Shown here: in pieces, positions 2,342-49,356 of the stretch | How positions within the stretch are numbered: the stretch's first letter is position 1 | Layout of the letters: the number at the start of each line of letters is the position of its first letter | Origin: Alphaproteobacteria bacterium | GTDB taxonomy: Bacteria; Pseudomonadota; Alphaproteobacteria; UBA7985; JAUIBT01 | Reading direction: 5' to 3' | Assembly (NCBI GenBank): GCA_030428255.1 | Contig: JAUIBT010000004.1 | Location: forward strand, 66,604 to 130,603 | Length of the DNA stretch: 64,000 nucleotides | The notes under the pieces: generated by a model | The model's input: only the letters and a program-made list of their open reading frames with translations | The model's database searches: none | Told to the model about the DNA's origin: nothing | Program-made: the position numbers and the translations under genes

Positions 2342-5300
2342 TTAGCTGCGCTCCTGGACCAAATCGACGTTCAGACACAAAGCCCGCAGTTCTTTGGTCA
2401 AAACGTTAAAGGATTCCGGGATACCCGCTTCAAAGTTGTCGTCGCCGCGCACGATGGCCTCATAGACCTTGGTACGGCCCGCCACGTCATCCGACTTGAC
2501 GGTCAACATCTCCTGCAAGGTATAGGCAGCGCCGTAAGCCTCCAGCGCCCAAACCTCCATCTCACCAAAGCGCTGTCCGCCGAACTGCGCCTTACCGCCC
2601 AAGGGCTGCTGGGTGACCAGCGAGTAAGGACCAATCGAACGCGCGTGCAGCTTGTCGTCCACCAAGTGGTGCAGCTTCAGCAAGTACTTGTAACCCACGG
2701 TCACCTTGCGGTCGAACTGCTCGCCGGTACGACCGTCGAACAACTCGCTTTGACCCGAGCCATGCAGACCTGCTTTTTCCAGCAGCTCTTCGATCTCTGA
2801 CTCGCGCGCACCGTCGAACACGGGCGAGGCCATGGGCACGCCGTTGACCAAGTTGCCAGACAGCTCCAGCACCTCGGCATCGTTCATGTCCGCGATGGAG
2901 TCGTTGAAGATCTCCTCGCCATAGGCGGTCTTCAGACGCTCTTTGACCTCTGAGAGATCGCTGACCTGCTTGTGCTGATAGGCTTCAATCGCTTGACGGA
3001 TTGAAACGCCCAGACCGCGCGCGGCCCAGCCCAAGTGGGTCTCCAAAATCTGACCCACGTTCATGCGCGAAGGCACGCCCAAGGGGTTCAGAACGATGTC
3101 AACCGGCGTACCGTCGGCCAAGAAGGGCATGTCTTCGATGGGGTTAATCCGCGAGACAACACCCTTGTTGCCGTGGCGGCCCGCCATCTTATCGCCGGGC
3201 TGAAGCTTCCGCTTAATGGCGATATAGACCTTGACCATCTTCATGACCCCAGGAGGCAGCTCGTCGCCACGCTGGATCTTGTCGGCCTTGTCCTCAAAGC
3301 GCTTGACGATCTCGTCAACCTCTTGATCGAATTCCTGCTTGGCGCGCTCGATGGCAGCCATGGTCTCGTCGTCTGCAACCGAGAAGAGACGCCAGTTGCC
3401 TTGCGGAATTTCTTCCAGCATGGCTTCGTCGATCACTTCAGCGCTGGACGAGCGCGCCGGACCGTCAACGATGGTCTGGCCCAACAGCAGCTCGCGCAGG
3501 CGGAAGAAGAATGAGCTTTCGATAATCGCGCGCTCGTCGTCGCGGTCTTTGGCCAAGCTTTCGATCTCTGAACGTTCAATCGCCAGAGCGCGCTCGTCCT
3601 TGTCGATGCCGCGGCGTGAGAAGACGCGCACATCAACCACGCAGCCCGAAGAGCCTGGCGGCAGGCGCAGCGAAGAATCGCGCACATCCGAGGCCTTCTC
3701 ACCGAAGATCGCGCGCAACAACTTTTCTTCTGGCGTCATCGGGCTTTCGCCTTTGGGTGTCACCTTGCCAACCAGAATGTCACCGGCTTTGACCTCAGCG
3801 CCGACATAGACAATGCCTGCTTCGTCGAGGTTGCGCAGCGCTTCTTCACCGACGTTAGGGATGTCGCGGGTAATTTCCTCGGGTCCCAACTTGGTGTCGC
3901 GGGCCATCACCTCGTAATCGTCGATGTGGATCGAGGTATAAACGTCGTCCCGCACGATGCGCTCAGAGATGAGGATCGAGTCCTCGAAGTTGTAACCCTG
4001 CCAAGGCATGAAGGCCACCAACACGTTCTTGCCCAAAGCCAGCTCGCCCAAGTTGGTCGAAGGACCGTCGGCGATGATATCGCCGGCCTTGATGCGGTCG
4101 CCGGTCTTCACAAGCGGCTTTTGGATGATACAGGTCGATTGGTTCGACCGCTGGAACTTGGACAGCTTATAGATGTCCACGCCCTCTTCGCGGCCGGTGT
4201 CATCGTTGATCACGCGGATCACGATACGCCGTGCGTCCACCTGGTCCACAGCACCAGAGCGGCGCGCCACAACCGCAGCACCGGAGTCGCGGGCAACCGT
4301 GCGCTCCATGCCGGTGCCGACGAAGGGCGCTTCAGACACCACCAACGGCACAGCCTGACGCATCATGTTCGAGCCCATCAGGGCGCGGTTCGCATCGTCA
4401 TTTTCCAAGAAGGGAATGAGCGAGGCCGCAACCGAAACAATCTGCTTGGGCGAAACGTCGATGTAGTCCACGTCGCCGGGCGTCACCAGCAGCGATTCAC
4501 CATCGCGGCGGACCGACACCAGCTCACCAGAAAGCTTGCGCTCGGCGTCGGTTGAGGCGTTGGCCTGAGCCACGGTGTAGTGGGCTTCTTCGATGGCTGA
4601 CAGGTAAGTCACCTCGTCAGACAACTGGCCGCCCTCTTCAACCTTGCGGTAGGGGCTTTCGATAAAGCCGTATTGGTTGACGCGGGCATAGGTGGCCAGC
4701 GAGTTGATCAAACCAATGTTCGGACCTTCGGGGGTCTCAATTGGACAAATCCGGCCGTAGTGGGTCGGGTGGACGTCGCGCACCTCAAAGCCCGCACGCT
4801 CGCGGGTCAGGCCGCCTGGGCCCAAGGCCGACAAGCGGCGCTTGTGGGTGATCTCAGACAGGGGGTTGGTCTGGTCCATGAACTGCGAAAGCTGCGACGA
4901 GCCAAAGAATTCACGCACCGCGGCCGCCGCGGGCTTGGCGTTGATCACGTCTTGCGGCATGACGGTGTCGATTTCGACCGACGACATACGCTCGCGGATC
5001 GCGCGCTCCATGCGCAGCAGGCCAACGCGGTATTGGTTTTCCATCAGCTCACCGACCGAGCGCACACGACGGTTGCCCAGGTTATCGATGTCATCCGGCC
5101 CGGCGCTGGAGTCCTTCATGGTATGCAGCGTGCGCACGATAGCGATCAGGTCTTCACGGCGCAGAACCCGCAGGCTGTCTTCGCCTTCCAGTCCCAGGCG
5201 GGCGTTCATCTTCACGCGGCCAACCGCAGACAAGTCATAGCGCTCTTGGTTGAAGAACAGCGATTGGAACAGGTCTTCGGCGGTCTCCAAGGTGGGCGGC

Positions 5301-6523
5301 TCGCCCGGGCGCATAATGCGGTAGATGTCCAGCAAAGCATCTTCGCGGGTGGCGTTCTTATCGACGGCCAGAGTGTTGCGCAGGTGGGCGCCCACCTGGT
5401 TGTGGTCGATCGACAGAATTTCCAGCTCTTCCTGGTTCATGTCGGCCAGATAGTCGAGCAGGTCTTGGGTGATCTCGTCGCCCGCTTCGGCAACGACCGC
5501 GCCGCTTTCCTCGATGTAGTCGGTCGCCAGGTAGCGTCCAATCAGGTCATCTTCGGGAACCAGATAGGCTTTCATGCCGCCATCCAGCAGCTTGCGTGCC
5601 TTGCGCGGCGACAGCTTGGTGCCTGCCTCAGCGACCACCTCACCGGTGTCAGCGTCTTGCAAGTCGCGCTCCAGCTTGACGCCCTTCAGCGCCGTCGGGT
5701 TGAAGTCCAGCGTCCAACCACGGCCTTGAGCGTCCTTTTTATAGGTCACGGAGCCGTAGACGATGCTCAGGATTTCCTCGCGGGTCATGCCCTGCACGTC
5801 GCGGCGATCGATGGCGCGGCCTTCGGCGGCGGCCTCTTCGCGCTTGGCGGCGGTATAGTTGCTGTCCAACGCCATCAGCAAGGTGGTGGCGGGCAGCTTA
5901 CGACGGCGGTCGATACGCACGTTCATAATGTCCTTGGCGTCGAACTCGAAGTCCAGCCAAGAGCCACGGTAGGGAATCACGCGCGATGAATAGAGGTACT
6001 TGCCAGACGAGTGAGTCTTGCCGCGGTCATGGTCAAAGATCACGCCCGGCGAGCGGTGCATCTGAGAGACGATCACGCGCTCAGTGCCATTGACGACAAA
6101 GGTGCCGTGCTTGGTCATCAGCGGCATGTCGCCCATGTAGACGTCTTGCTCTTTGATATCGCGGATCGAGCGCGCGTCGGTGTCCTCGTCGATTTCCCAG
6201 ACCACCAGGCGCAGCGTAACTTTCAGCGGCGCAGCAAAGGTGATGCCGCGCGACATACACTCTTCGACGTCGTACTTGGGCTCTTCGAGTTCGTAGGACA
6301 CGAACTGCAATTCGGCGCGGTTCGAGAAATCCTTGATCGGGAAGACCGAGTGGAAGACCTCCAACAGGCCCGCCATCTCGCGCTCATCGTGGCGCATATT
6401 AGCCTGCAAGAAGCGCTCGTATGAGCGACGCTGAACCTCGATGAGGTTCGGCATCTCGATGACTTCGGGGATGCGGCCAAACGAGCGACGGATGCGCTTG
6501 CGTTCAGTAAAGGACTTGCCCAT
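2342..6523 (-). CDS. rpoB: DNA-directed RNA polymerase subunit beta (1393 aa)
   Basis: Full-length ORF in track; N-terminus [40 protein letters not shown] and conserved rpoB blocks throughout; stop TAA at 2342-2344. Confidence 0.97.
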
Positions 6524-6930
6524 GGACCTACCATCTAATTTGGAGCCTTGTGCAAGCAGGCAGCGTGGGGAGGGCAGGAAAAGCGGCCAATCTCAGCCGT
6601 ATCAAACGCCAACAGCGCAGACGACCTGTCTCCAAACCTGGGGGCCGCTGCGCACTCCGACAAGCTAATCGCTTACCAAGAAACTCGAGTTGTCAATGAA
6701 ATCACCAAAGTGATTGGCAGCGCAGAGATCTGCACCACGTTCAATAGAGAGGGGGAGTTGCGGCGGCACCATCCATTCGTGCCGGTCGGGCTGTATAGGC
6801 GCAAAACTGTGGCTTGACAAGGGCGAATGGGCCGGTCTGCGTCGCTTGGCGCTGGCAAATCGCCCGACGGTGAGGCTTTGCGACATGCCGTCGCAACCTA
6901 AAATAGGTCTAACCCCACCACTTCTAAGCG

Positions 6931-13840: not shown

Positions 13841-15232
13841 CTAGTCTTCGCTGTCGTCTTCTTCGTCTGCTTGCCAATGTGCTGGGCGGAACAGCCCTGG
13901 CGGCAATTTGGTGTGCCGGGCCCCTCGGGCGGCATCGATTTGCACTTGAGTCAAATTTTTTGATCTTCCAAAATCTAGCTTCTGAAAAAATGACTGGCTC
14001 AATACCGCCCTCGAGAGATTGGCTCCCGCCAATCTTGTCTCAATCAGTTGTGCCCTGCTCAAATCTGCCTCTTCAAGTATAGCATTAGTCAGATTGACCT
14101 TGTTCAAATGGGCTCTGATCATTCTCGCCCGCGTAATGTCCGCGCCTTTCAAATCGGCTTCGTACAATCTCGCACCGCCCATGCTGGCCCCAACAAGCTT
14201 GGCTCCAACCAACTTGGTCTCGATCAGTTTTGCAGCGTTTAGTTCTGCCTGCCACAAGTTGGCACCGATCAACTCAGTTCCCACCAGATCGGCTCCGTTC
14301 AGTTTGGTACTTGACAGATTTGCACCATTGAGAACGGCTTTGCTAGCAAGCGCACCTGTTAGGTTTGCTTCCCAAATCGCCGCCTTTTCAAAATTTGTAC
14401 CGATCAACTTTGCGCGACGCATATCCGCCTTCATCAATAGGGACGCTGTGAGATTATATCCTATCAAATTGGCCCCACTGAAAACAGCGCTACGGAAATC
14501 GACTTCGCAGAAATCCAGTGCTTTGTCATACGAAGAAAAACCCGCAGCAAATACCCCGCTCAAATCAATATATTTGTCACCGGGTACGCTCCGCCTGCGA
14601 CCGATCACTGTCAAGACACAGCAAATATCTAGGTTTGAATCTGAACCCTTGATCAGCTGCTCGGCAGCGTCGTTGCCCAGATCAGCCAGATCATCAACTG
14701 TCGGAAACGCCTTGGATTGCTCACGGGCAAAGCCGCTCAGGGTCTCAATGATCGACCAATAGAGATTGAAGTCGGTGTCCTGCACATCGCGCATCACCCT
14801 TTCCAGCGTATAGATTGCGCCGATCCGCACCGCCATTTTGTCAGACCCAAGTTGCTCGTAAGCCTTGGTCAAATCAGTCGAAATCTGTGTGTCCAGCGCG
14901 ACCTTGGCCTGAAGTCGGGAAGTCTCAGCTTCCTTTGCCGAAATGGCGTTGCGCCATATCCACATCGTGGCCAAAGCAATACCGGCCCAAAACGTCAGCA
15001 GGCCTGCTACGAGTTGCGCAATCGAATCTGGGTCTTTGAAAGCCTCCGCAGCCAGCGACGAACGGATCAGCGGAATCAATCGAGCAAAGAACGCCCAATT
15101 CGCGCCGAAGAACACTCCGACAAAAATCGCCACAAGCCAGAGCGGCAAATCCCATTGCCCACCGCGCCAAGGAACGGAAGCCACCCATTTGGCAAATCGG
15201 CTCTCCTTGTTCGCGTTTTTTGGCTCGGCCAC
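13841..15232 (-). CDS. membrane-anchored pentapeptide-repeat protein (463 aa)
   Basis: N-terminal TM helices (WLVAIFVGVFFGANWAFFARLIPLI, LVAGLLTFWAGIALATMWIW), C-terminal ~200 aa of A(D/N)LxxAxL pentapeptide repeats, acidic tail ADEEDDSED. Confidence 0.8.
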   Translation of the reverse strand: MAEPKNANKESRFAKWVASVPWRGGQWDLPLWLVAIFVGVFFGANWAFFARLIPLIRSSLAAEAFKDPDSIAQLVAGLLTFWAGIALATMWIWRNAISAKEAETSRLQAKVALDTQISTDLTKAYEQLGSDKMAVRIGAIYTLERVMRDVQDTDFNLYWSIIETLSGFAREQSKAFPTVDDLADLGNDAAEQLIKGSDSNLDICCVLTVIGRRRSVPGDKYIDLSGVFAAGFSSYDKALDFCEVDFRSAVFSGANLIGYNLTASLLMKADMRRAKLIGTNFEKAAIWEANLTGALASKAVLNGANLSSTKLNGADLVGTELIGANLWQAELNAAKLIETKLVGAKLVGASMGGARLYEADLKGADITRARMIRAHLNKVNLTNAILEEADLSRAQLIETRLAGANLSRAVLSQSFFQKLDFGRSKNLTQVQIDAARGARHTKLPPGLFRPAHWQADEEDDSED

Positions 15233-17552: not shown

Positions 17553-18191
17553 CTAGCCCTGAGCCAGCGGCCCGCGCCCGGCCAGCGCTTTGCTCAAATC
17601 GGCGATAATCGCTTCAGGGTTGGTCGCCAGGCTGTAAAGATCCTCAAACCGATTGTGCAAATAATCCTGAGACTCGAAGTGGTCGAACAGCGCGATCAAG
17701 GGCTGCCAAAAGCCGCCAAAGTCCGCAAAAACGATGGGTTTGTCGAGTTGACCCAGTTGCTTGAGCGTCACCACCTCCATCACCTCCTCCAGCGTGCCAA
17801 AGCCGCCGGGCAAGATGACAAAGGCGTCTGCGCGCTGCATCATGATATTCTTACGTTGGTGCATGGTTTCGACCACGATCAGCTCGGCCAGGTCGCGATT
17901 GGCGGCCTCCATGTCCAGCAGGAAACGGGTGATAACGCCCGTAACGGCAGCGCCTTCTTGCTGAGCGGCCAGGCTTGAGGCTCCCATCAGGCCGACCTTG
18001 CCCCCGCCGAACACAAAATCAGCGCCCGCCAAGCCCAGCGCGCGACCGACGGCCGAGGCCTGCTCGCGGTGCGCAACAGGTCCGCGCTGCGATGCTCCGC
18101 CATAGACACAGATGGTGTAGCCCAAAAGCGGACCTTTGCGAGGCCGGGAGTTCGATTCTCTCGACTGGCTCGCGAGTGATTGTTTTGACAT
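17553..18191 (-). CDS. LOG-family protein (cytokinin riboside 5'-monophosphate phosphoribohydrolase-like; TIGR00730)
   Basis: ICVYGGAS...GGGKVGLMG...PGGFGTLEE motifs; the ATG at 18191 gives a 24-aa N-terminal extension absent from typical LOG proteins; an in-frame TTG near 18116 with upstream AAAGG is an alternative start. Confidence 0.85.
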   Translation of the reverse strand: MSKQSLASQSRESNSRPRKGPLLGYTICVYGGASQRGPVAHREQASAVGRALGLAGADFVFGGGKVGLMGASSLAAQQEGAAVTGVITRFLLDMEAANRDLAELIVVETMHQRKNIMMQRADAFVILPGGFGTLEEVMEVVTLKQLGQLDKPIVFADFGGFWQPLIALFDHFESQDYLHNRFEDLYSLATNPEAIIADLSKALAGRGPLAQG

Positions 18192-18406: not shown

Positions 18407-20572
18407 ATGCCGGCAAAAATTGCAGTCTTGATTTTGTTTTTGCTCGCCGCCGCGGGCGGTGGCACCTGGTGGCTTGTGACCCAGAACCCTGCCCCGGAGC
18501 CCGCCGCTGTCACTCAGCCCGAGGCAGAAGCCCCGGCTGAGCCCGTCGCGCCTGCGCCTGCTGAAGAGCCTGTTGTGGCTGAGGCCCCGGTTGAGCCCGC
18601 CGCTCCTGCGCCAACCGAGGAGCCCGCTGTGGCTGAGGCCCCGGCTGAGCCCGCCGCGCCTGCGCCCGCAGAAGAGCCCGTTGTGGCTGAGGCCCCGGCT
18701 GAGCCCGTCGCGCCTGCGCCCACCGAAGAACCTGCTGTGGCAGAAGCCCCAATTGAACCCACCGCGCCTGCGTCTACCGAAGAACCTGTTGTGGCTGAGG
18801 CCCCGGTTGAGCCCGCCGCTCCTGCGCCCGCTGAAGAACCTGCTGTGGCTGAGGCCCCGGTTGAGCCCGCCGCTCCTGCGCCCGCTGAAGAACCTGCTGT
18901 GGCTGAGGCCCCGGTTGAGCCCGCCGCGCCTGCGCCCGCTGAAGAACCTGCTGTGGCTGAGGCCCCGGCTGAACCCGCCGCGCCTGCGCCTACCGAAGAA
19001 CCTGTTGTGGCTGAGGCCCCGGTTGCGCCTGCCGCTCCGGCGTCTACCGACGAACCTGCTGTAGCTGAGGCCCCGGTTGAACCCGCCGCGCCTGCGCCCA
19101 CCGAAGAACCCGTTGTGGCTGAGGCCCCGGTTGAACCCGCCGCGCCTGCGCCCACCGAAGAACCCGCTGTGGCTGTAGCACCGCAAGACCTCAACACGCT
19201 GGAAGGTCTGTCGGCTTTGGTCGATTCTTTCCAGATTACCGAAGAGGACACCCAGGCTGCCTTTGGCGACGGCAGCCAGCTCTCAAGCAATGGCAAGGCC
19301 TCTGCGAGCGGCCTGGATCAGCTCGATCTGGCCAAAGCGGAGAGCGAGCCGAACCAAACTGGAGCGCCCAATTCACCCGACGCGCCGCAAGATCTGCTTG
19401 AAACCTCACAGGGCAGCTTTGATCTCATTCGCTTGGACCCGCAAGGCAAGGCCGTTCTGGCTGGCTCCAGCAACCGGCGGACTACCAGCTTGTTGATGAA
19501 CGACACTTTGCTTGAGAATCTGGAGGTGTCAGAAGCTGGGCAGTGGTCCTATGTAACCGACAAGCCGCTGCCGACCGGCGCACTGACCTTTGCCCTTGCC
19601 GTGCGCGACCCTGTGACGGGTGCCTTCTTGGAGCCCTACTTAGCGGTGGCCGCTCTGTTTATCGACGCTCCGCAAGCGCCAGGCAAGCAAGCCGAACAGG
19701 ACGCCAAGGCGGATCCTCAGATTGCCAAAGCCGACAGCAGCCCGCCCAGCACAAGTCCGTCAGACACAGGCCCAGCATCAGCCAACGCTGAAGCGGCCAG
19801 CGGCGAAGCCACACCTGCGCCCGCGCCTGCGCAAATCCCAGCGCCGCAAGCTTCGGAGCAGCAGACATCCGAGCCGCAGATTGCCGCCGCGACGCCCGAG
19901 GCCGCACCGTCTGACGATGCCGGAGCAAGCCCCGATCCAAGCAAGCTCGCGGACCAACTTATTGCCAAGGCCGACAGCTTGGCCGAACCGCTGAACCCCA
20001 AAGCCAACAGCGAACTCAAGACCGGTGAAGGTGGGCAAATGCGCCTGCTTGCGGTCTCCAAGAGCGCGGGCGATACGCAATTTCGCGTCCTGAGCGCCCA
20101 GCTTTCCGGCCCACAGCGCGACGGCGAATTGTTCCTTGAGCGCCTCGATTACGATTCCTTCGGCAATTTGGTCCTCACTGGCCAGGGCCAAGCTAGCCAG
20201 CGTGTCAATCTCTACGTCGATAACGTGCTGGTTGGTCAGCCGCGCGTGCGCCGCGACCAGCGCTGGCACCTGGCACCGCGGGGCTATCAGTGCGAGGTGG
20301 GCGAGCATACCCTGCGCGCCGATCTGGTCGATGACCAAGGCCAAGTCCTGTCCCGCGTTGAGCTGCCGTTCGAGCGCAAAGCCACATCCTGGGATACCTT
20401 GGGTAAGGTGGATCTGACCATCCGTCGCAATGACAATCTCTGGACCATCGCCTCGCGTGCTTTTGGCGAGGGGGTAAAATATACCTTGATCTATGAAAAC
20501 AATAACGATCAAATTTCAGACCCAAACTTGATCTACCCTGGCCAAGTCTTTGAGATTAAGCGTGAAAACTAG
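18407..20572 (+). CDS. membrane-anchored Pro/Ala/Glu-rich repeat protein with C-terminal LysM domain (721 aa)
   Basis: N-terminal TM anchor IAVLILFLLAAAGGGTWWLV; twelve 18-aa repeats AEAPxEPxAPAPxEEPxV; C-terminal LysM-like DNLWTIASRAFGEGVKYTLIYENNNDQISDPNLIYPGQVFEI. Confidence 0.8.
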   Translation: MPAKIAVLILFLLAAAGGGTWWLVTQNPAPEPAAVTQPEAEAPAEPVAPAPAEEPVVAEAPVEPAAPAPTEEPAVAEAPAEPAAPAPAEEPVVAEAPAEPVAPAPTEEPAVAEAPIEPTAPASTEEPVVAEAPVEPAAPAPAEEPAVAEAPVEPAAPAPAEEPAVAEAPVEPAAPAPAEEPAVAEAPAEPAAPAPTEEPVVAEAPVAPAAPASTDEPAVAEAPVEPAAPAPTEEPVVAEAPVEPAAPAPTEEPAVAVAPQDLNTLEGLSALVDSFQITEEDTQAAFGDGSQLSSNGKASASGLDQLDLAKAESEPNQTGAPNSPDAPQDLLETSQGSFDLIRLDPQGKAVLAGSSNRRTTSLLMNDTLLENLEVSEAGQWSYVTDKPLPTGALTFALAVRDPVTGAFLEPYLAVAALFIDAPQAPGKQAEQDAKADPQIAKADSSPPSTSPSDTGPASANAEAASGEATPAPAPAQIPAPQASEQQTSEPQIAAATPEAAPSDDAGASPDPSKLADQLIAKADSLAEPLNPKANSELKTGEGGQMRLLAVSKSAGDTQFRVLSAQLSGPQRDGELFLERLDYDSFGNLVLTGQGQASQRVNLYVDNVLVGQPRVRRDQRWHLAPRGYQCEVGEHTLRADLVDDQGQVLSRVELPFERKATSWDTLGKVDLTIRRNDNLWTIASRAFGEGVKYTLIYENNNDQISDPNLIYPGQVFEIKREN
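18527..19175 (+). repeat. 12 near-identical 54-bp tandem repeats (coding, in frame)
   Basis: Unit GCTGAGGCCCCGGTTGAGCCCGCCGCTCCTGCGCCCGCTGAAGAACCTGCTGTG repeated head-to-tail with few substitutions. Confidence 0.9.
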
Positions 20573-20734
20573 AGCAAGCCTTGAGGTATAGAGGCCCGCA
20601 GACCGCTGACTTCAGCCAAGTCGGCCAAAAGTGGACCTCGACACCCCACTGCGGACGGTGAAAACCGCCCCAGATCGCGCGCTCCAGGGCCTGCGCATTG
20701 CACAACCTGCGTGTCGCACAAGGAGTGCCCCTGC

Positions 20735-22240
20735 ATGCCCGCATTTGTTTCCGCCCTTCTGCACCCGCTGAAACCACTGGTTCTGCTGGGTCGCGCGGGC
20801 CTCTTCGGCCTAGGCCTGTTGGCCGCCACTCAAGCCACAGCACAGACCACCGCCAGCCCAGTCGCCGTGGTTTGCCAGACTGCGGTGGCCAATCCCGACG
20901 CCATCATGCTGGAGCTGATGGCTAATGAAGCCCAAGACCTGGAGGCGCGCCTTGCCGCCGGTGACGCGGAGCTGGCCTGCGTGCTGCAACACCTCATCAG
21001 CCTCAAGGGTTATCCGCTGAGCATTGACGGCGACTTCGGTCCACAGTCGCGCCGGGCGCTGGCCTCCTTCAAGGCCGTTCATTGTAACGACGGCGACCCC
21101 AACGAGCGCCTCAACCGCGCCGCCTTGTCCTGCCTGATTGATGACAGCAAGCCCCTTCCCCTGGCCTTTATTGGCGCGACGCTTCCACCGGCTGACACGG
21201 TGCCCAACTCCAACCCCCTCAGCCTGCCCAGCCTACCCAGCTTGGGTACGACAGCGCCCAATACGACAGTGCCCAGTACGACAGCGCCCAGTACGACCGC
21301 CGCCACTGCAGACGCCCAAAGCGCCACCGCTCTTCCGGACCCGCTCACCACCCCGCTGCCAGGCCCCAAGCCGAGCCTGGCTGCAAACACTGCCGTTGCG
21401 GTCAGCACCACCCACCTGCGCCGCAGCTCGCAAGTCACCGGCCAGCCCTGCCGCGATCCGGCCAGTTCAAGCGACAGCGACATCCGGGCCAATCTGCCGG
21501 TTTTTGCCGCCTCGCCGCTCTGCTACTCTGTGGTGACGGTCGAAGAGGCCGGACGGCGTTGGCTGGTACAAGTTATTGAAAATTATGAGAATGTAAGAAG
21601 CTGGGCTTGGCTGGCTCCGCACGATAACGAGGATGCGGCCCAGAACGGTGGCATTTGGGCGGTCGCAAAGTACGGCGGTTTCCTGATCACCTTCGAGACC
21701 GGCAATCAGCGCATTTTCCAAGGCCAAGACGCCAATCGCATCTTCGGCATCACAGCTCAGGACGTCGCCACCTGCTCGCAATTGAGCGCGCCACACCCCA
21801 AGTTGACTGCGCTGATCGACGGCTATTTCCGCTTATCACCGCGCCCCTACTTGTCTTTGCACAGCAACGATAATGGCTATTCAGGTAACGGCGGCAGGGG
21901 CACCATTTCCGTGCTGCGCCGATCCAGCGTTCTGCAAGGTCATCCGTCAAAGACCGCGGCGGGAAAACTGGCGGATGATGAAGACAACCTGATCATGACC
22001 GCGGGAACCCTGGGCTTTGAGTCCGATCCCAAGGCTCTGCACTTCGCCAGCGCTATGACCCATCAGGGCGTTCACGTCATCTATGAGGCGGTCTCACCAG
22101 CCAAGAACGATTGCTCGTTTTCAAACTTCGTCAAGTTGAACCGCCAGGCGGACTACTATACCGTTGAGGTCGAGCACGGCAAAACCCAGCGCATGCGCGA
22201 TCTGATCGCGATATTGTTGGCCTATCTGGGCCAGCGGTGA
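20735..22240 (+). CDS. secreted protein with peptidoglycan-binding domain (PG_binding_1-like), Thr/Pro-rich linker and uncharacterised ~270-aa C-terminal domain
   Basis: Signal peptide MPAFVSALLHPLKPLVLLGRAGLFGLGLLAATQATAQ; LKGYPLSIDGDFGPQSRRALASFKA PG-binding motif; start chosen at internal ATG 20735 (track ORF begins 20711). Confidence 0.65.
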   Translation: MPAFVSALLHPLKPLVLLGRAGLFGLGLLAATQATAQTTASPVAVVCQTAVANPDAIMLELMANEAQDLEARLAAGDAELACVLQHLISLKGYPLSIDGDFGPQSRRALASFKAVHCNDGDPNERLNRAALSCLIDDSKPLPLAFIGATLPPADTVPNSNPLSLPSLPSLGTTAPNTTVPSTTAPSTTAATADAQSATALPDPLTTPLPGPKPSLAANTAVAVSTTHLRRSSQVTGQPCRDPASSSDSDIRANLPVFAASPLCYSVVTVEEAGRRWLVQVIENYENVRSWAWLAPHDNEDAAQNGGIWAVAKYGGFLITFETGNQRIFQGQDANRIFGITAQDVATCSQLSAPHPKLTALIDGYFRLSPRPYLSLHSNDNGYSGNGGRGTISVLRRSSVLQGHPSKTAAGKLADDEDNLIMTAGTLGFESDPKALHFASAMTHQGVHVIYEAVSPAKNDCSFSNFVKLNRQADYYTVEVEHGKTQRMRDLIAILLAYLGQR

Positions 22241-39149: not shown

Positions 39150-41738
39150 TTAGTCCGCGGCCTGCCAGCGCACGGCGGTTTCCTGGTAGCCCACACGCTG
39201 CGCCTCATTGAGCCCCGCAGGCTCGGCGATCTGTGCCTGTACCAGCGCTGCAACCCGCTCAAACAGAGCCTCCAGGCCGTCAAACGGCCGCTGGTCCCGC
39301 CAATCGCCGCCATACAGACGCGCCAAGAACTGGGCGTGCTGAAGGGCCAGCGCGTCGCTGGCCAAGCGAGAGGTTGCGCCCAGCGCGCGATCCAGCGCGG
39401 CGGGCAGGTCGCAGGGGGCCTGATCCAACAGCTCGGGATGGTCAGCGGCCAGGGTCAAAACCTGAACGTTGATCAAGAACTCCAGCTCCATCAGCCCGCC
39501 GGGACGCAGCTTCACTTCGCCAGCCGAGGGCTCGGCCTCATAGCGCGCGCGGCGCAAACGCCCCAGCATCTTCCAAGCATCCTGGTGAAGCTGCAAGCCA
39601 TCGCGCGGCTTGGACAAGATCGCGCGGCGCACGGCGCGAATATCCTGGCTGATGCCAGGATCGTCCAAAACAACCCGGCTGGTGACTAGGGCTAGGTGCT
39701 CCCAGGTGTGGGCCTGCTTGGCCTGATAGGTCTCGAACGACGACAAGCTGACCGTCGGCGGTCCCGAGCGCCCCGAGGGACGCAGGCGCGTATCCGTAGG
39801 GTAGGCGCGGCCCTCCTTCATCGGTGCGTCCAACAAAGCGACAAAGCGGCGAGCGATCTTGTTGGCTTTTTCAAATTCGGTGCCGTTGGGCACGATGAAA
39901 ATCAGATCCAAATCGGACAGCGGCATCATGTTGCGCGTCGCCAGTTTGCCCAGCGCCAACACGCTGAAGGGCAGCGCCTCGAGCCCTTGTTCCTGGCACA
40001 AGATGTCCGAGGCAAGCTGAAGCGTCATGTCCGCCAGATCGGTCAAAAAACCCTGCGCCCACAAAGTATCTTTCTGCTCATCGAACACCGCCAGAAAGGC
40101 CATATAGAGCTGCTCGTTGACGAAGGCCCGCAGCGCGCCCAACTGGCGCTCATAGTTAGGCGCGGCGGTGACCAGCGCTTGGCCGGTCTCCAAATCTGGC
40201 ACCTCCGGCACCCGGCCTCCGTTGGAGATGAGGCCGTCTACCACATAGGGCGATTGGTGCAGCAAGATCGCCATGGCGCCCGAGTGCATCAAAGGGCGGA
40301 TGACGTGGGCGGTCAGGCGCGGCTGTTCGGCGAACAAACGCAGGTAGGAGCCCGCGCTTGGACCTAGACTTTTCAAAAAGGCGTGGGTCGCTTTGGCGGC
40401 CGCGTTGGCATCGGCACTCTCCAGACAAAGACGTGCCATTTCCTGGCCCAACGCCTTGAATTTTGCCTCAGCGTCTTGGGGCAAACCGTAGGCCTGGAAG
40501 CCCGCTTGCCAAATGTTGAGCAGCTCAATGTCGGTCTCAACCGCCGCGCCCAAGCTGTCATCGGTAGCAAAGTAGGCCTGAAACGCGGCCTGGACGCGGG
40601 CACGGATCGCCACCACCTCTTGCTCAAGCGCCGCCCAATCGGGCTGCCCTGAGCGCTGGGCAATCCAGGCTTGCTGATCGGGGGTGTTGGGCAATGCATG
40701 CTCGTGGCCGTCGGCCCAGAGCTGCACTCGATTCTCCAGAGCGCGCAGCCGCTTATAGGCGGGCTCAAGCTCGGGGGCCAACAGGCCTTCGTCCACCAAG
40801 ACCCGCAAGGCGGACAGCGTGTGGGCAGTCTGCAAACGCGGATCGCGACCGCCCCAAACCAACTGATGCGCATTGACCAAGAACTCGATTTCGCGAATGC
40901 CGCCGCGGCCCAGCTTGGTGTGGAAGCCCGCTGCCTGGTCCAGCGGCACCTGCTGGGACCGCTCGCTTTTCAGCTCGGGGTGCTCGGCGTGGATCTTGGT
41001 GTGCAGAGCGTTGATCTCGTCGATTGCGCCCTTGTCCAATGAACGCCGCCAAATGAAGGGGTGCAGCTCGGATAAAAAGCGCCGCCCGGCCTCCAGATCG
41101 CCGGCCACCACCCGCGCCTTCATCATGGCCAAACGCCGCCAGGGCGGTGAGTGGAAAAAGAAATAGTCTAGCCCGGCTGCCACCGACATGGCCAAGTCCG
41201 TAACCGAAGGATCCGGACGCAAGCGCCAGTCAATGCGCCAGGCAAAGGGGCCGGTCTTGGAGCCATCCAGCAGCTTGTTGAGATTGCGCAGCGCGCGCGC
41301 GCAGACATCGGTCTTACCCTCAAAGGCTTTCACCGGCACCAAATCGGGCTCATAGAAGGCCACCAAATCCACGTCGGACGAAAAATTCAGATCCTGACCG
41401 CCCAGCTTGCCCAGCCCCAGAATAAACAGGCCTGGTATGGGGCCTTGGTCGGGAAGCTCGGTGGTGCGGCGCTTCATGTCCGGCTGACGCCAGGCTGCAG
41501 CAAGCCCCTCGTCCAGCATGCGGTCGGCTTGATCGGACCACCAATGGCCCAGGGTCTCAGGGTCTTCACCGGCTGCATCGCGTGCAATATAGTCGCGCTG
41601 GATGCGGCGCTTGTCGGCCAAAAAGCCTGCCCGAACCTCGTCACCGCCGCTCAAGGGTTCGGGGCCATCTAGCCGCTCTTGCAAGGGGAAGACATCCAAG
41701 GGCGAGACAAGTGCGGACATAGCGGCGCTTTCATGCAA
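39150..41738 (-). CDS. glnE: bifunctional glutamine synthetase adenylyltransferase/adenylyl-removing enzyme
   Basis: Two nucleotidyltransferase domains (GLGKLGGQDLNFSSDVDLV and LALGKLATRNMMPLSDLDLIF); 862 aa; real start possibly MSALVSPLD at 41720. Confidence 0.88.
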   Translation of the reverse strand: MHESAAMSALVSPLDVFPLQERLDGPEPLSGGDEVRAGFLADKRRIQRDYIARDAAGEDPETLGHWWSDQADRMLDEGLAAAWRQPDMKRRTTELPDQGPIPGLFILGLGKLGGQDLNFSSDVDLVAFYEPDLVPVKAFEGKTDVCARALRNLNKLLDGSKTGPFAWRIDWRLRPDPSVTDLAMSVAAGLDYFFFHSPPWRRLAMMKARVVAGDLEAGRRFLSELHPFIWRRSLDKGAIDEINALHTKIHAEHPELKSERSQQVPLDQAAGFHTKLGRGGIREIEFLVNAHQLVWGGRDPRLQTAHTLSALRVLVDEGLLAPELEPAYKRLRALENRVQLWADGHEHALPNTPDQQAWIAQRSGQPDWAALEQEVVAIRARVQAAFQAYFATDDSLGAAVETDIELLNIWQAGFQAYGLPQDAEAKFKALGQEMARLCLESADANAAAKATHAFLKSLGPSAGSYLRLFAEQPRLTAHVIRPLMHSGAMAILLHQSPYVVDGLISNGGRVPEVPDLETGQALVTAAPNYERQLGALRAFVNEQLYMAFLAVFDEQKDTLWAQGFLTDLADMTLQLASDILCQEQGLEALPFSVLALGKLATRNMMPLSDLDLIFIVPNGTEFEKANKIARRFVALLDAPMKEGRAYPTDTRLRPSGRSGPPTVSLSSFETYQAKQAHTWEHLALVTSRVVLDDPGISQDIRAVRRAILSKPRDGLQLHQDAWKMLGRLRRARYEAEPSAGEVKLRPGGLMELEFLINVQVLTLAADHPELLDQAPCDLPAALDRALGATSRLASDALALQHAQFLARLYGGDWRDQRPFDGLEALFERVAALVQAQIAEPAGLNEAQRVGYQETAVRWQAAD

Positions 41739-47484: not shown

Positions 47485-47922
47485 CTCAAAGGGGTCTTTG
47501 CCCTGGGCTTTTCAGTTCCAGATGACGCGCTGAACTTCAGTGATTGTGACTTGAGCGCTGCGGTGTTGGCGGGCGCAAAGCTGAACGGCTACCATTTCAA
47601 GTCTTCAATCCTTCGAGGCGCCAACCTGAGCGGTGCCATCCTGCGAAGTGCTGAACTTAGCGGGTCCAACCTGAGCGAGGCCGACCTGGGTGGTGCCGAG
47701 CTAGTCGAGGCCGACCTGAGCGAGGCCGACCTCGGCGGGACCAACCTGTATCGTGCCGACCTGAGCGGGGCCGCGCTGCGCGGGAACACTCTATGCTACG
47801 CAAACAATTTGACCCAGGACCAAATCGACCTGGCCGATGGAGACGAAAGCACCGTTCTGCCGGATGGCCAAGAGCCACCAGCGCATTGGTCAAAGCACGA
47901 AGATTCGCAAGACAAGGACTAG
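47485..47922 (+). CDS. pentapeptide-repeat protein (open frame begins 47485 after TGA; no ATG before the TTG at 47551)
   Basis: ...FSDCDLSAAVLAGAKLNGYHFKSSILRGANLSGAILRSAELSGSNLSEADLGGAELVEADLSEADLGGTNLYRADLSGAALRGN; tail PPAHWSKHEDSQDKD resembles tail of the 13841-15232 paralog. Confidence 0.55.
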   Translation, partial: LKGVFALGFSVPDDALNFSDCDLSAAVLAGAKLNGYHFKSSILRGANLSGAILRSAELSGSNLSEADLGGAELVEADLSEADLGGTNLYRADLSGAALRGNTLCYANNLTQDQIDLADGDESTVLPDGQEPPAHWSKHEDSQDKD

Positions 47923-47958: not shown

Positions 47959-48105
47959 AGCGCAAATCCACTTTCAGCCCTTGGGGCCTCGGGGTTTGCT
48001 GGTTGTTCCGCGCAAATCCACCTAAGGGGTTTGCTGGTTGTTCCGCGCAAATCCACCTAAGGGGTTTGCTGGTTGTTCCGCGCAAATCCACCTAAGGGGT
48101 TTGCG
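47959..48105. repeat. ~3.7 tandem copies of a 35-bp unit (CGCGCAAATCCACCTAAGGGGTTTGCTGGTTGTTC) in the convergent intergenic region, abutting the stop of the MFS gene
   Basis: Direct head-to-tail repeats at 48009, 48044, 48079 plus a degenerate copy at about 47959. Confidence 0.85.
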
Positions 48106-49356
48106 CTAGCCACGCGGGTGGCTCTCCTTCAGCGCGAGCAGCAGCCAAAGTCCCGAGGCCAGCATGGCCGTACCCGTGACCCAAAACGCGGGCTCCAGCA
48201 GGCCCCAGGCGTCGGCCACCAGCCCCATGGCCAGCGCGCCAAAGGCGTAGCCCAGATCGCGCCAAAAGCGGTAGACCCCCAGCGCCGAGCTGCGCCAGGC
48301 CGGATGCGCCAGATCGCCCATAGCCGCAATCAAAGTCGGGTAGAGCAGCGCCATACCAACACCGATCACCGCCGCGGCCAAGCTCCAAGCCAACAGCCCC
48401 GCCAGCGCCGGAAAGACCAGCACGCCCAGCGCACAGAGCCCAAAGCCCGTCACCGTTGGCCCTTTGCGACCAAAGCGATCAGACAACGGTCCGGTCCACA
48501 GCTGGCTGGCACCCCAAACAAAGCCATAGACGCCTGTCACCCAACCGACCTCGATCAGGCTCGCGCCGCGCGCCAACAGATAGACCGGCATCAGCCCCCA
48601 CATGAGCGCATCAACGAATTTCTCGATACAGCCCGCTTGGGATAGGGCCAGAAAATTGCGGTCGCGCCAGCTCACCAGCGCAAAGACCTGACCGGTGCTC
48701 AGCGCCTCGGATTTCGCGTCTGGCCCGGCTGCCTGAGCGCGCCGGGTGGTCTCGGCCTGGGCAAAGGGCAGGGTCTCGGTAAAGGCCACCAGCGCCCCCG
48801 CCAGCGCCACCAACGCCACGGTCAGGCCAAAGACAAACAGGCTCCAGCGCGGATCAAAGCTGCTGGCCAGATAGCCGGTCGCCAAGCCCGCCAGCGCCAC
48901 CCCGCCGTAGCCCGCGAACTCGTTGAGGCCGGTCGCCAAGCCGCGCTCGCCCGCTTTGACGATATCCATTTTGGCGCTGACCGTCATCGACCAAGCGAAA
49001 CCCTGATTGACGCCCAGCAAGACGTTGGCCACCACCAACCAGCCCCACGAGGGCGCCCACAGGATCATAAAAGGAATCGGCAGGGCTGCAATCCAACCCC
49101 AGATCAGCACCCGGCGACGACCCAGGCGCTCGGACAGGCGGCCCGAGACGAAGTTCATCGCGCCCTTGACTAAGCCAAAGGAGATGATCAGCGCGAATAT
49201 GGCGGTCATGGAGCCGCGTGCCAAGCCAAAGTCGCTCTCGGCCAGCGCGGGCAGTACCGTGCGCTGGGCACCAATGGTCAGGCCGACAAACAGAACCTGC
49301 AGCAGTTGTTCAAGAAACGCCCGGCGATTGACGGCAATGCCCAGGTGATAGCTCAT
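48106..49356 (-). CDS. MFS transporter (416 aa)
   Basis: 12 predicted TM segments; MFS signature GRLSERLGRRRVLIWG. Confidence 0.85.
   Translation of the reverse strand: MSYHLGIAVNRRAFLEQLLQVLFVGLTIGAQRTVLPALAESDFGLARGSMTAIFALIISFGLVKGAMNFVSGRLSERLGRRRVLIWGWIAALPIPFMILWAPSWGWLVVANVLLGVNQGFAWSMTVSAKMDIVKAGERGLATGLNEFAGYGGVALAGLATGYLASSFDPRWSLFVFGLTVALVALAGALVAFTETLPFAQAETTRRAQAAGPDAKSEALSTGQVFALVSWRDRNFLALSQAGCIEKFVDALMWGLMPVYLLARGASLIEVGWVTGVYGFVWGASQLWTGPLSDRFGRKGPTVTGFGLCALGVLVFPALAGLLAWSLAAAVIGVGMALLYPTLIAAMGDLAHPAWRSSALGVYRFWRDLGYAFGALAMGLVADAWGLLEPAFWVTGTAMLASGLWLLLALKESHPRG

Follow-up and report, generated by a model that had tools for sequence, protein, structure and literature searches.

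We identified a tandem array of 54-bp units lying in frame within the gene for a predicted membrane-anchored LysM protein in a 64-kb stretch of alphaproteobacterial DNA (contig JAUIBT010000004.1; hereafter, the window, meaning the whole stretch analyzed; GC content, 60.9%). With a probability that we place at about 70%, the array represents a lineage-specific in-frame repeat that forms a flexible acidic periplasmic tether, the length of which is loosely constrained, and it does not act as a calibrated ruler. Tandem Repeats Finder (TRF) detected it as the single strong array at 18523..19175, with a period of 54, 12.1 copies, 87% matches, 0 indels and a score of 914, and the reading frame divides it into exactly 12 units. 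It is described as follows:

18527..19174, + strand: 54-bp tandem array, 12 in-frame units of 18 codons, amino acids 41-256 of the open reading frame (ORF) 18407..20572

A first-pass annotation of this DNA had counted 12 tandem 54-bp repeats and proposed a TRF run for an exact copy number; the count agrees with the run, although the end coordinate given at that time, 19175, lies one base beyond the in-frame end at 19174. The consensus unit is GAGGCCCCGGTTGAGCCCGCCGCGCCTGCGCCCACCGAAGAACCTGCTGTGGCT at the DNA level and EAPVEPAAPAPTEEPAVA at the peptide level, and the 216-residue array peptide consists of Ala (34%), Pro (27%), Glu (21%) and Val (12%) for the most part, has a net charge of -47 and contains neither Lys nor Arg.

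The array is far beyond chance, and coincidence is excluded. Across 20 shuffles of the whole window that preserved dinucleotides, the top score given by TRF was 36-63, compared with 914 for the real sequence, and shuffling the codons of the array 50 times yielded 104 at most. A 30-nt consensus probe, allowed up to 3 mismatches, matched 10 units and nothing else in the 64 kb, where 0 matches were expected, and the 54-mers flanking the array were identical to the consensus at 20-21/54 positions, indicating that its edges are sharp. The GC content of the array (71.9% vs 60.9% in the window) is high because of its Ala, Pro and Glu codons, and the GC content at third codon positions is lower in the array (0.55) than in the remaining gene (0.675). 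Other ORFs of 268, 260, 163 and 80 amino acids run over the array on the reverse strand and in alternative frames; these were rejected as by-products of a stop-free repeat, as it is the + frame alone that links the conserved transmembrane (TM) segment with the conserved domains. A scan for promoters and terminators gave counts that were not above those in shuffled sequences.

The host protein was resolved into segments by comparison with two relatives from alphaproteobacterial metagenome-assembled genomes, designated L001 and L002, together with profile searches and an AlphaFold2 model built on a 55-sequence alignment. The segments are listed below, with Ig denoting immunoglobulin and pLDDT the predicted local distance difference test score of the model:

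18407..20572, + strand: host ORF, 721 amino acids plus stop, in the order TM, linker 1, Ig-like 1, linker 2, Ig-like 2, LysM (Pfam matches to LysM, BiPBP_C and Big_13; AlphaFold2; termini common to L001 and L002)
18413..18484, + strand: N-terminal TM helix, amino acids 3-26, AKIAVLILFLLAAAGGGTWWLVTQ (helix in AlphaFold2; Kyte-Doolittle 19-mer mean of 2.03; no His)
19190..19237, + strand: motif LNTLEGLSALVDSFQI directly 3' of the array, where the variable part of linker 1 ends (kept in L001 and L002; AlphaFold2 helix at amino acids 265-272)
19409..19660, + strand: Ig-like beta-sandwich domain 1, amino acids 335-418 (jackhmmer family mapping; AlphaFold2 pLDDT >90)
19661..20122, + strand: linker 2, amino acids 419-572, acidic and disordered, with one conserved helix at amino acids 511-524, LADQLIAKADSL
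20123..20383, + strand: Ig-like domain 2, amino acids 573-659, homologous to domain 1 (jackhmmer; weak Pfam matches; AlphaFold2 pLDDT 85-97)
20402..20563, + strand: C-terminal LysM domain, amino acids 666-719 (Pfam, PDB sequence matches and AlphaFold2)

Pfam PF01476 (LysM) matched amino acids 671-717 with an E value of 1.2e-6 and 28.8 bits, compared with a gathering cut-off of 20.9, and the PDB sequences matched, those of Kbp and SafA, aligned in their LysM parts only. Weak Ig-like matches to BiPBP_C (E 1.3e-4) and Big_13 were found at amino acids 582-654, and each of the jackhmmer domain models matched both Ig-like domains. In the AlphaFold2 model, confident beta-sandwiches were present at amino acids 336-418 and 576-657, and the LysM domain at 668-717 had the beta-alpha-alpha-beta arrangement (strand 668-671, helices 678-686 and 689-698, strand 714-717; pLDDT ~74-87). 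Amino acids 27-334, which include the array, were modeled as coil with a pLDDT of ~45-62 and had no secondary structure except the short helix 265-272. A Foldseek search against the PDB matched the Ig-like domains only to generic bacterial Ig-like or Fn3-like modules, such as those of SiiE, Bap and CbhA. Thus, the earlier description of a membrane-anchored LysM protein, with the helix at amino acids 3-26 and LysM at 671-717, is upheld, and so is that of an AEAPxEPxAPAPxEEPxV-type spacer, which is coding, in frame and situated between the N-terminal membrane helix and the LysM end. The coding status of the array follows from the conserved TM segment upstream and the conserved domains downstream, which are in the same frame and common to the orthologues. 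Linker 1 as a whole is 311 residues long, and the array makes up ~70% of it.

LysM domains bind peptidoglycan, and the sole hydrophobic helix of the protein lies at its extreme N-terminus, after a Lys. For these reasons, the protein would be oriented N-in/C-out and anchored in the inner membrane, with its whole body, including the array, in the periplasm. The TM sequence is nearly identical in L001 and L002, which would make it more likely that the segment stays as an anchor than that it is cleaved off as a signal peptide.

The units were then compared with one another. They were identical to the consensus at 46-52 of 54 positions, and the mean pairwise identity was 86.8% for DNA, about equal to the 84.8% for the peptide. 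Units 6 and 7 were the sole identical pair; a single nt separated unit 8 from these two, and likewise unit 11 from unit 12. The block of units 6-8 is located as follows:

18797..18958, + strand: units 6-8, the block duplicated most recently (0 and 1 differences); the longest stretch shared exactly (84 nt, lag 54) lies within it

Further exact shared stretches were 49 nt long at lag 54 and 44, 40 and 39 nt long at longer lags. Among the 54 columns, 21 were variable, 13 of which were third codon positions. The residues E1, A2, P3, P6, A8, P9, A10, E14, P15, V17 and A18 of the unit were invariant, the Glu and Pro positions were essentially fixed across units, and positions 4, 7, 12 and 16 toggled among Ala, Val, Thr and Ile. 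Summed over all unit pairs and uncorrected, the proportions of synonymous (pS) and nonsynonymous (pN) differences were 0.282 and 0.073, resulting in a pN/pS of 0.26, which indicates selection only roughly, as the units are short paralogues between which sequence may have been exchanged. The high silent divergence, together with the retained peptide pattern, indicates that most units are old, the opposite of what a fresh expansion or strong homogenization would leave. Most of the array is thus old with the peptide under constraint, and recent copying is limited to units 6-8 and 11-12.

These results alter the picture drawn in the first-pass annotation. The term "near-perfect" for the repeat units was too strong, as only units 6-8 and 11-12 are identical or almost so, and the statement that the units are nearly identical at the DNA level, and not just in the protein, does not apply to most of them, given the 86.8% and 84.8% identities and a pS of 0.28. 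The suggestion of a recent expansion or gene conversion holds in part: units 6-8 and 11-12 are recent, and the four-gamete test was violated in 28 of 45 pairs of informative sites, but the array overall is neither recent nor homogenized. The four-gamete failures indicate past unequal exchange within the array between misaligned units, or else recurrent mutation. In addition, the unit ending alternates between VV and AV along the array, units 6-8 excepted, which suggests an older two-unit register that was later disturbed by single-unit duplications. A weak 27-nt sub-period was also present in the consensus unit (self-identity of 32/54 at offset 27 vs 17-26 at other offsets), and TRF likewise lists a 27-nt row.

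To place the linker in an evolutionary context, we compared it with those of the nearest relatives. A genome scan yielded three of them, namely L001, L002 and L003. L001 and L002 showed ~52% identity in the folded parts and had the same TM segment (MPGKIAILILFLLAAAGGGTWWLL) and the same motif after the variable part of the linker (LNTLEGL..DSFQI). The 355-364 residues between these two landmarks were unalignable with the 236 residues of the window protein; they had no 54-bp unit, and the repeats present in them were of 15 bp (pentapeptides) and of several different kinds. The pentapeptide repeats were present in both linkers, for example as MTDAA x4, DTGNT x6 and EQALA x6, at the following positions:

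L001: 15-bp repeats at 5443..5509, 5669..5713 and 6633..6673
L002: 15-bp repeats at 2818..3047, 3454..3552, 4125..4335 and 4438..4484

Repeat birth in the linkers of the orthologues is recurrent, and linker 1 is fast-evolving at this deeper level, in that orthologues of ~52% identity carry a different linker. The net charge of the linker was -50 in the window protein and -75 and -72 in L001 and L002, corresponding to ~-0.2 per residue in all three, with hardly any basic residue. L003 (CAZHYF010000364.1, 2040 bp) was the closest genomic relative with 77% identity, and its contig starts inside linker 2; the low-complexity linkers of the gene may break short-read assemblies. P0081, obtained in the search of representative proteins, was 88% identical and is a 134-residue fragment of the C-terminus only. 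The exact protein was found as a single record, and no close relative covering the array part of the gene was found in the genome, metagenome and protein collections searched. A metagenome scan with conserved peptide patterns returned no relative, and one with a degenerate 23-nt repeat pattern returned 3 single matches, which were convergent Pro/Ala/Glu-rich stretches or chance matches and no orthologues. A protein search with the N-terminal 300 amino acids returned no match; even the protein itself was missed, probably because the query, being of low complexity, overloaded the word index.

The wider family was recovered with the non-repetitive part of the protein. A search with amino acids 257-721 returned the protein itself as a singleton and 78 homologues, which came from Parvibaculum, Devosia, Pelagibacterium, Cohaesibacter, Shinella and many metagenomes, and an exhaustive HMMER search of 1.84 billion representatives returned 148 proteins at E ≤ 1e-30, most of which were 280-430 amino acids long; approximately 20 of the best 150 matches were at least 500 amino acids long. 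Members are annotated as "LysM peptidoglycan-binding domain-containing protein" or "Ig-like domain-containing protein". By jackhmmer mapping, the order Ig-Ig-LysM was found in 81 of 81 sequences, a few having extra Ig copies (P0082, P0092 and P0164 carry three or four Ig-like domains), and the TM segment came first wherever the N-terminus was complete. The window protein (Ig1 at 335-414, Ig2 at 573-659, LysM at 666-719 in this mapping) had the same order as the 80 other members and shares the LysM motif of the family, NLWxIAxRxYG...IYxxNxDQIxDPxLIYPGQVF. The literature searches for a characterized TM-Ig-LysM protein in Alphaproteobacteria found none.

The linkers of the family varied widely in length, as follows:

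Linker 1: 30-450 residues, median 80 (n = 56, members with a detectable N-terminal TM helix)
Linker 2: 28-290 residues, median 144 (n = 81)
Linker 3: 5-330 residues, median 89 (n = 81)

Pooled linkers 2 and 3 were rich in Ala, Pro, Glu and Thr, with a net charge of ~-12.5 per 100 residues. Among the long-linker representatives retrieved, linker 1 was mostly acidic, the exceptions being P0214, in which it is Ala/Lys/Glu-rich and resembles the helical domain II of TolA, P0109, in which it is Lys-rich and neutral, and P0125, in which it is Pro/Ala-rich and neutral. The family is thus modular, and its spacers use several chemistries. Small unrelated repeats were present in some linkers (13 amino acids x 4 in P0013, 17 amino acids x 3 in P0060 and 30 amino acids x 2.7 in P0033), but the array of the window protein was by far the strongest repeat in the set, with a score of 103 vs at most 31, and a regular 18-residue repeat was absent from all other members retrieved.

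If the array is a loosely constrained tether, it would have grown by unequal recombination or replication slippage, from a starting unit that may itself have been a doublet of the 27-nt motif, and would have been kept long enough for most of its units to diverge, with selection acting on composition (acidic, proline-rich and extended) and not on the exact sequence. Its length would still be changeable in 18-residue steps without a break in the frame. The product would be a polyanionic, self-repelling and flexible tether. With the N-terminus remaining in the inner membrane, it would give the Ig-like/LysM end the reach to find peptidoglycan and hold on to it. Ala/Pro/Glu sequence of this kind is extended, self-repelling and prone to form polyproline II (PPII) helix, which rises ~0.31 nm per residue. 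From such general polymer knowledge, the array would measure ~67 nm as a full PPII helix and have a mean end-to-end distance of ~10-15 nm if disordered, and the distance between the inner membrane and the wall in diderm bacteria is of the same order as the latter.

The presence of members with a linker 1 of 30 residues and the fifteen-fold variation in its length argue against a calibrated ruler. The previous proposal that the spacer would set the distance between the membrane anchor and the peptidoglycan-binding end therefore went too far, as linker 1 spans 30-450 residues in the family, which shows that it need not have any set length. On the other hand, both the low pN/pS and a charge density that stays constant across the three orthologues argue against complete neutrality, and the varied linker chemistries among long-linker members fit the role of a physical spacer or tether. 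Four points weigh against this interpretation. Minimal members of ~319 amino acids have a linker 1 of ~31-35 residues, indicating that a long linker is unneeded for the core function and that the expansion could be nearly neutral. The pN/pS is a rough measure, given the possible exchange of sequence between the units. The periplasmic location and peptidoglycan binding are deduced from the TM-first/LysM-last order and from the general behavior of LysM domains. Finally, the copy number comes from one assembly, in which the near-identical units 6-8 are open to miscounting from short reads.

The strongest alternative is that the array is a hypervariable locus with a variable number of tandem repeats (VNTR), in which active expansion and contraction makes the copy number differ among strains and the linker length tunable. 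We consider this possible but unlikely. The array does consist of head-to-tail similar units (12.1 copies, 87% matches), as a VNTR would, and its 54-bp unit is a multiple of 3, so that every change remains in frame; because the unit corresponds to 18 codons, gain or loss alters only the length and cannot switch the gene off, unlike in phase variation, for which the unit length is not divisible by 3. The exact stretches of 84, 49, 44 and 40 nt are long enough to be substrates for recombination or slippage, the units are mosaic, units 6-8 and 11-12 are fresh duplicates, and the linker has been wholly remodeled between orthologues. However, a unit identity of 86.8% with a synonymous divergence of 0.28 indicates that most units have long gone unhomogenized and lowers the slippage rate compared with perfect arrays, and no second allele of the protein, itself a single record, was found in the collections searched.

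A second alternative, to which we give somewhat less credence, is a neutral low-complexity expansion, in which the linker would tolerate nearly any sequence and slippage in the GC-rich codons for Ala, Pro and Glu would have produced the array incidentally, with no role for its length or composition. It draws on the members that function with 30-residue linkers, on the variation of linker length and sequence without a pattern, and on the recurrence of small unrelated repeats in the linkers of many members, such as P0013, P0033, P0060, L001 and L002. A neutral sequence would hardly be expected to keep its Glu/Pro scaffold invariant despite 28% divergence at synonymous sites (pN/pS 0.26), or to show ~-0.2 charge per residue in three orthologues with unalignable linkers.

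A more ambitious proposal would regard the TM-Ig-Ig-LysM family as an inner-membrane-to-peptidoglycan tether of Alphaproteobacteria, in which linker 1 takes the part that domain II has in TolA or TonB. Different lineages would meet the same need for reach with acidic repeats of a polyproline-like kind, with acidic chains that lack structure or with Ala/Lys/Glu helices, and the 18-residue repeat would serve here as a quantized spacer or entropic spring, quick to adjust, by which the distance from the inner membrane to the wall is tuned. We mention it as a speculation that is improbable in this full form.

It is very improbable that short-read assembly across the repeat produced the array, or distorted it or its copy number. 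The 84-nt exact stretch in units 6-8 could be mis-resolved with small k-mers, and the sequence exists in a single record; nevertheless, the 21 variable columns occur in distinctive combinations, making most junctions uniquely resolvable, and the frame is kept over all 648 bp between conserved flanks, so that at most the count of units 6-8 is uncertain.

The idea of a TonB/TolA-like force transducer, in which the proline-rich repeat would span the periplasm as a "domain II" and pass motor force to a C-terminal binding domain, can scarcely be credited and is already disfavored: its three-part layout of a TM helix, a proline-rich or disordered middle and a globular C-terminus resembles that described in PMC12204202, and the Ala/Lys/Glu-rich linker of P0214 recalls the helical domain II of TolA, but the TM segment AKIAVLILFLLAAAGGGTWWLVTQ has no His and hence no SHLS-type motor-binding motif (as in PMC12204202), TonB_C and TolA_C were not matched in Pfam or NCBIfam, and no ExbB/TolQ/MotA-type gene was present among the neighbors examined here or beside the Parvibaculum, Pelagibacterium and Cohaesibacter homologues.

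The genomic context of the LysM gene was also compared. The neighboring genes in the window include icd, LOG, GNAT, dapE, dapD and a histidine kinase, and the two that directly adjoin the LysM gene are as follows:

17553..18191, - strand: divergent upstream LOG-family gene (Lysine_decarbox/LDcluster4), adjacency kept in L001, L002 and Parvibaculum (L007 and L008)
20711..22240, + strand: downstream gene, 509 amino acids, syntenic only in L001 and L002

In L001 and L002, the LOG gene and the LysM gene are followed by the same downstream gene (485-509 amino acids). The LOG neighbor was not seen in Pelagibacterium and Cohaesibacter, which instead resemble each other in context: leuA-like and cysS genes lie upstream, and the downstream side has an ArsR-type regulator and an ABC exporter. 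As the adjacency to LOG is kept as far as Parvibaculum, the LysM gene looks like a vertically inherited core gene. The 509-residue downstream protein has a weak PG_binding_1/3-like motif at amino acids 91-123 (E 0.03-0.12), and its well conserved C-terminal ~250 residues had no Pfam, NCBIfam or PDB sequence match; it possibly contains an undescribed cell-wall-related domain. A 15-bp x 3.5 repeat (pentapeptide TTAPS-like) lies at 21246..21297 in the low-complexity linker of this gene, and it is of the same kind as the micro-repeats in the linkers of L001 and L002.

Several other repeats were observed in the window. A perfect (100%) tandem duplication with a 104-bp unit and 1.9 copies (38946..39147; TRF score 404) lies essentially between the ORFs 37440..38918 (+) and 39150..41738 (-) and looks very recent. 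A perfect 35-bp x 3.3 repeat (47991..48104; TRF score 228) ends directly beside the ORF 48106..49356 (-) and is probably non-coding, as its unit is not a multiple of 3. A 462-residue pentapeptide-repeat protein is encoded at 13841..15232 (-; Pfam E 1e-38), and a degenerate 15/45-bp repeat at 47669..47773 reads like pentapeptide-repeat coding sequence.

Proline-rich charged in-frame repeat spacers are well known in envelope proteins, including region Xr of protein A, domain II of TonB and many adhesins, and the present array is a further example of a repeat-built envelope spacer, in a conserved and uncharacterized family. Its practical value is modest: the array is a candidate typing or length-polymorphism marker for the lineage, and it marks a spot at which assembly errors should be watched for. 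More broadly, the gene probably encodes a core alphaproteobacterial LysM protein in which the folded domains are kept while the linkers vary fifteen-fold and are rebuilt from unrelated repeats. The family is therefore a natural system for asking how much the length and charge of a periplasmic tether matter.

Finally, we compared the protein with known systems. The linkers of the 2-oxo-acid dehydrogenase E2 component are Ala-Pro-Glu-rich, extended and flexible and give tethered domains their reach, but unlike the array, they are cytoplasmic, comprise ~20-30 residues and do not form long tandem arrays. Several homologues bear the JGI label YgaU/Kbp (BON-LysM), and this assignment was rejected because NF008399 scored 45.5 bits against a cut-off of 134 and aligned at profile positions 99-146 only, which is the LysM part. 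The Rgs proteins of Sinorhizobium meliloti (RgsA-H, M, P and S) were likewise set aside, as the text of PMC7327166, consulted without sequence comparison, has no LysM protein in the Rgs set; RgsD is an RrgC-like peptidoglycan binder with a signal peptide (PMC7327166). As described in PMC12918733, FimV/HubP proteins begin with a periplasmic LysM domain, which is followed by a TM segment, an acidic region in the cytoplasm and a FimV/TPR domain at the C-terminus; the likeness lies in the LysM domain, the single TM segment and the long acidic, partly repetitive region. Membership was rejected, as the order here is TM (amino acids 3-26) first and LysM (666-719) last, the acidic repeat is on the LysM side of the membrane, and no FimV domain was matched.

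TonB and TolA are alike in having a TM anchor, a long proline-rich segment that is PPII-prone or disordered and a globular C-terminal domain across the periplasm, and the length and secondary structure of their spacers vary widely between lineages (PMC12204202). The linker of the window protein is purely acidic, in contrast to the Glu-Pro/Lys-Pro pair in TonB of E. coli.

In Staphylococcus aureus protein A, the number of Xr repeats varies between strains, and these octapeptide repeats are used for spa typing. Protein A is the nearest textbook analogue of the window protein, as it combines an in-frame tandem-repeat spacer that spans the envelope (the region Xr octapeptides) with a LysM domain (PMC8092194). 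It differs in being Gram-positive and sortase-anchored, with 24-bp units that directly adjoin LysM, whereas the window protein has 54-bp units that are predicted to lie in a diderm periplasm and has two Ig-like domains and a second linker before LysM; furthermore, polymorphism has been seen for Xr, compared with one allele here. The closest match overall is the TM-Ig-Ig-LysM family itself, with which the window protein agrees in domain order, LysM motif, mutually homologous Ig-like domains and, in Parvibaculum, the LOG neighbor. Typical members have short linkers and ~300-430 amino acids, and the window protein stands apart from them by a 311-residue linker 1 that contains the 216-residue repeat.

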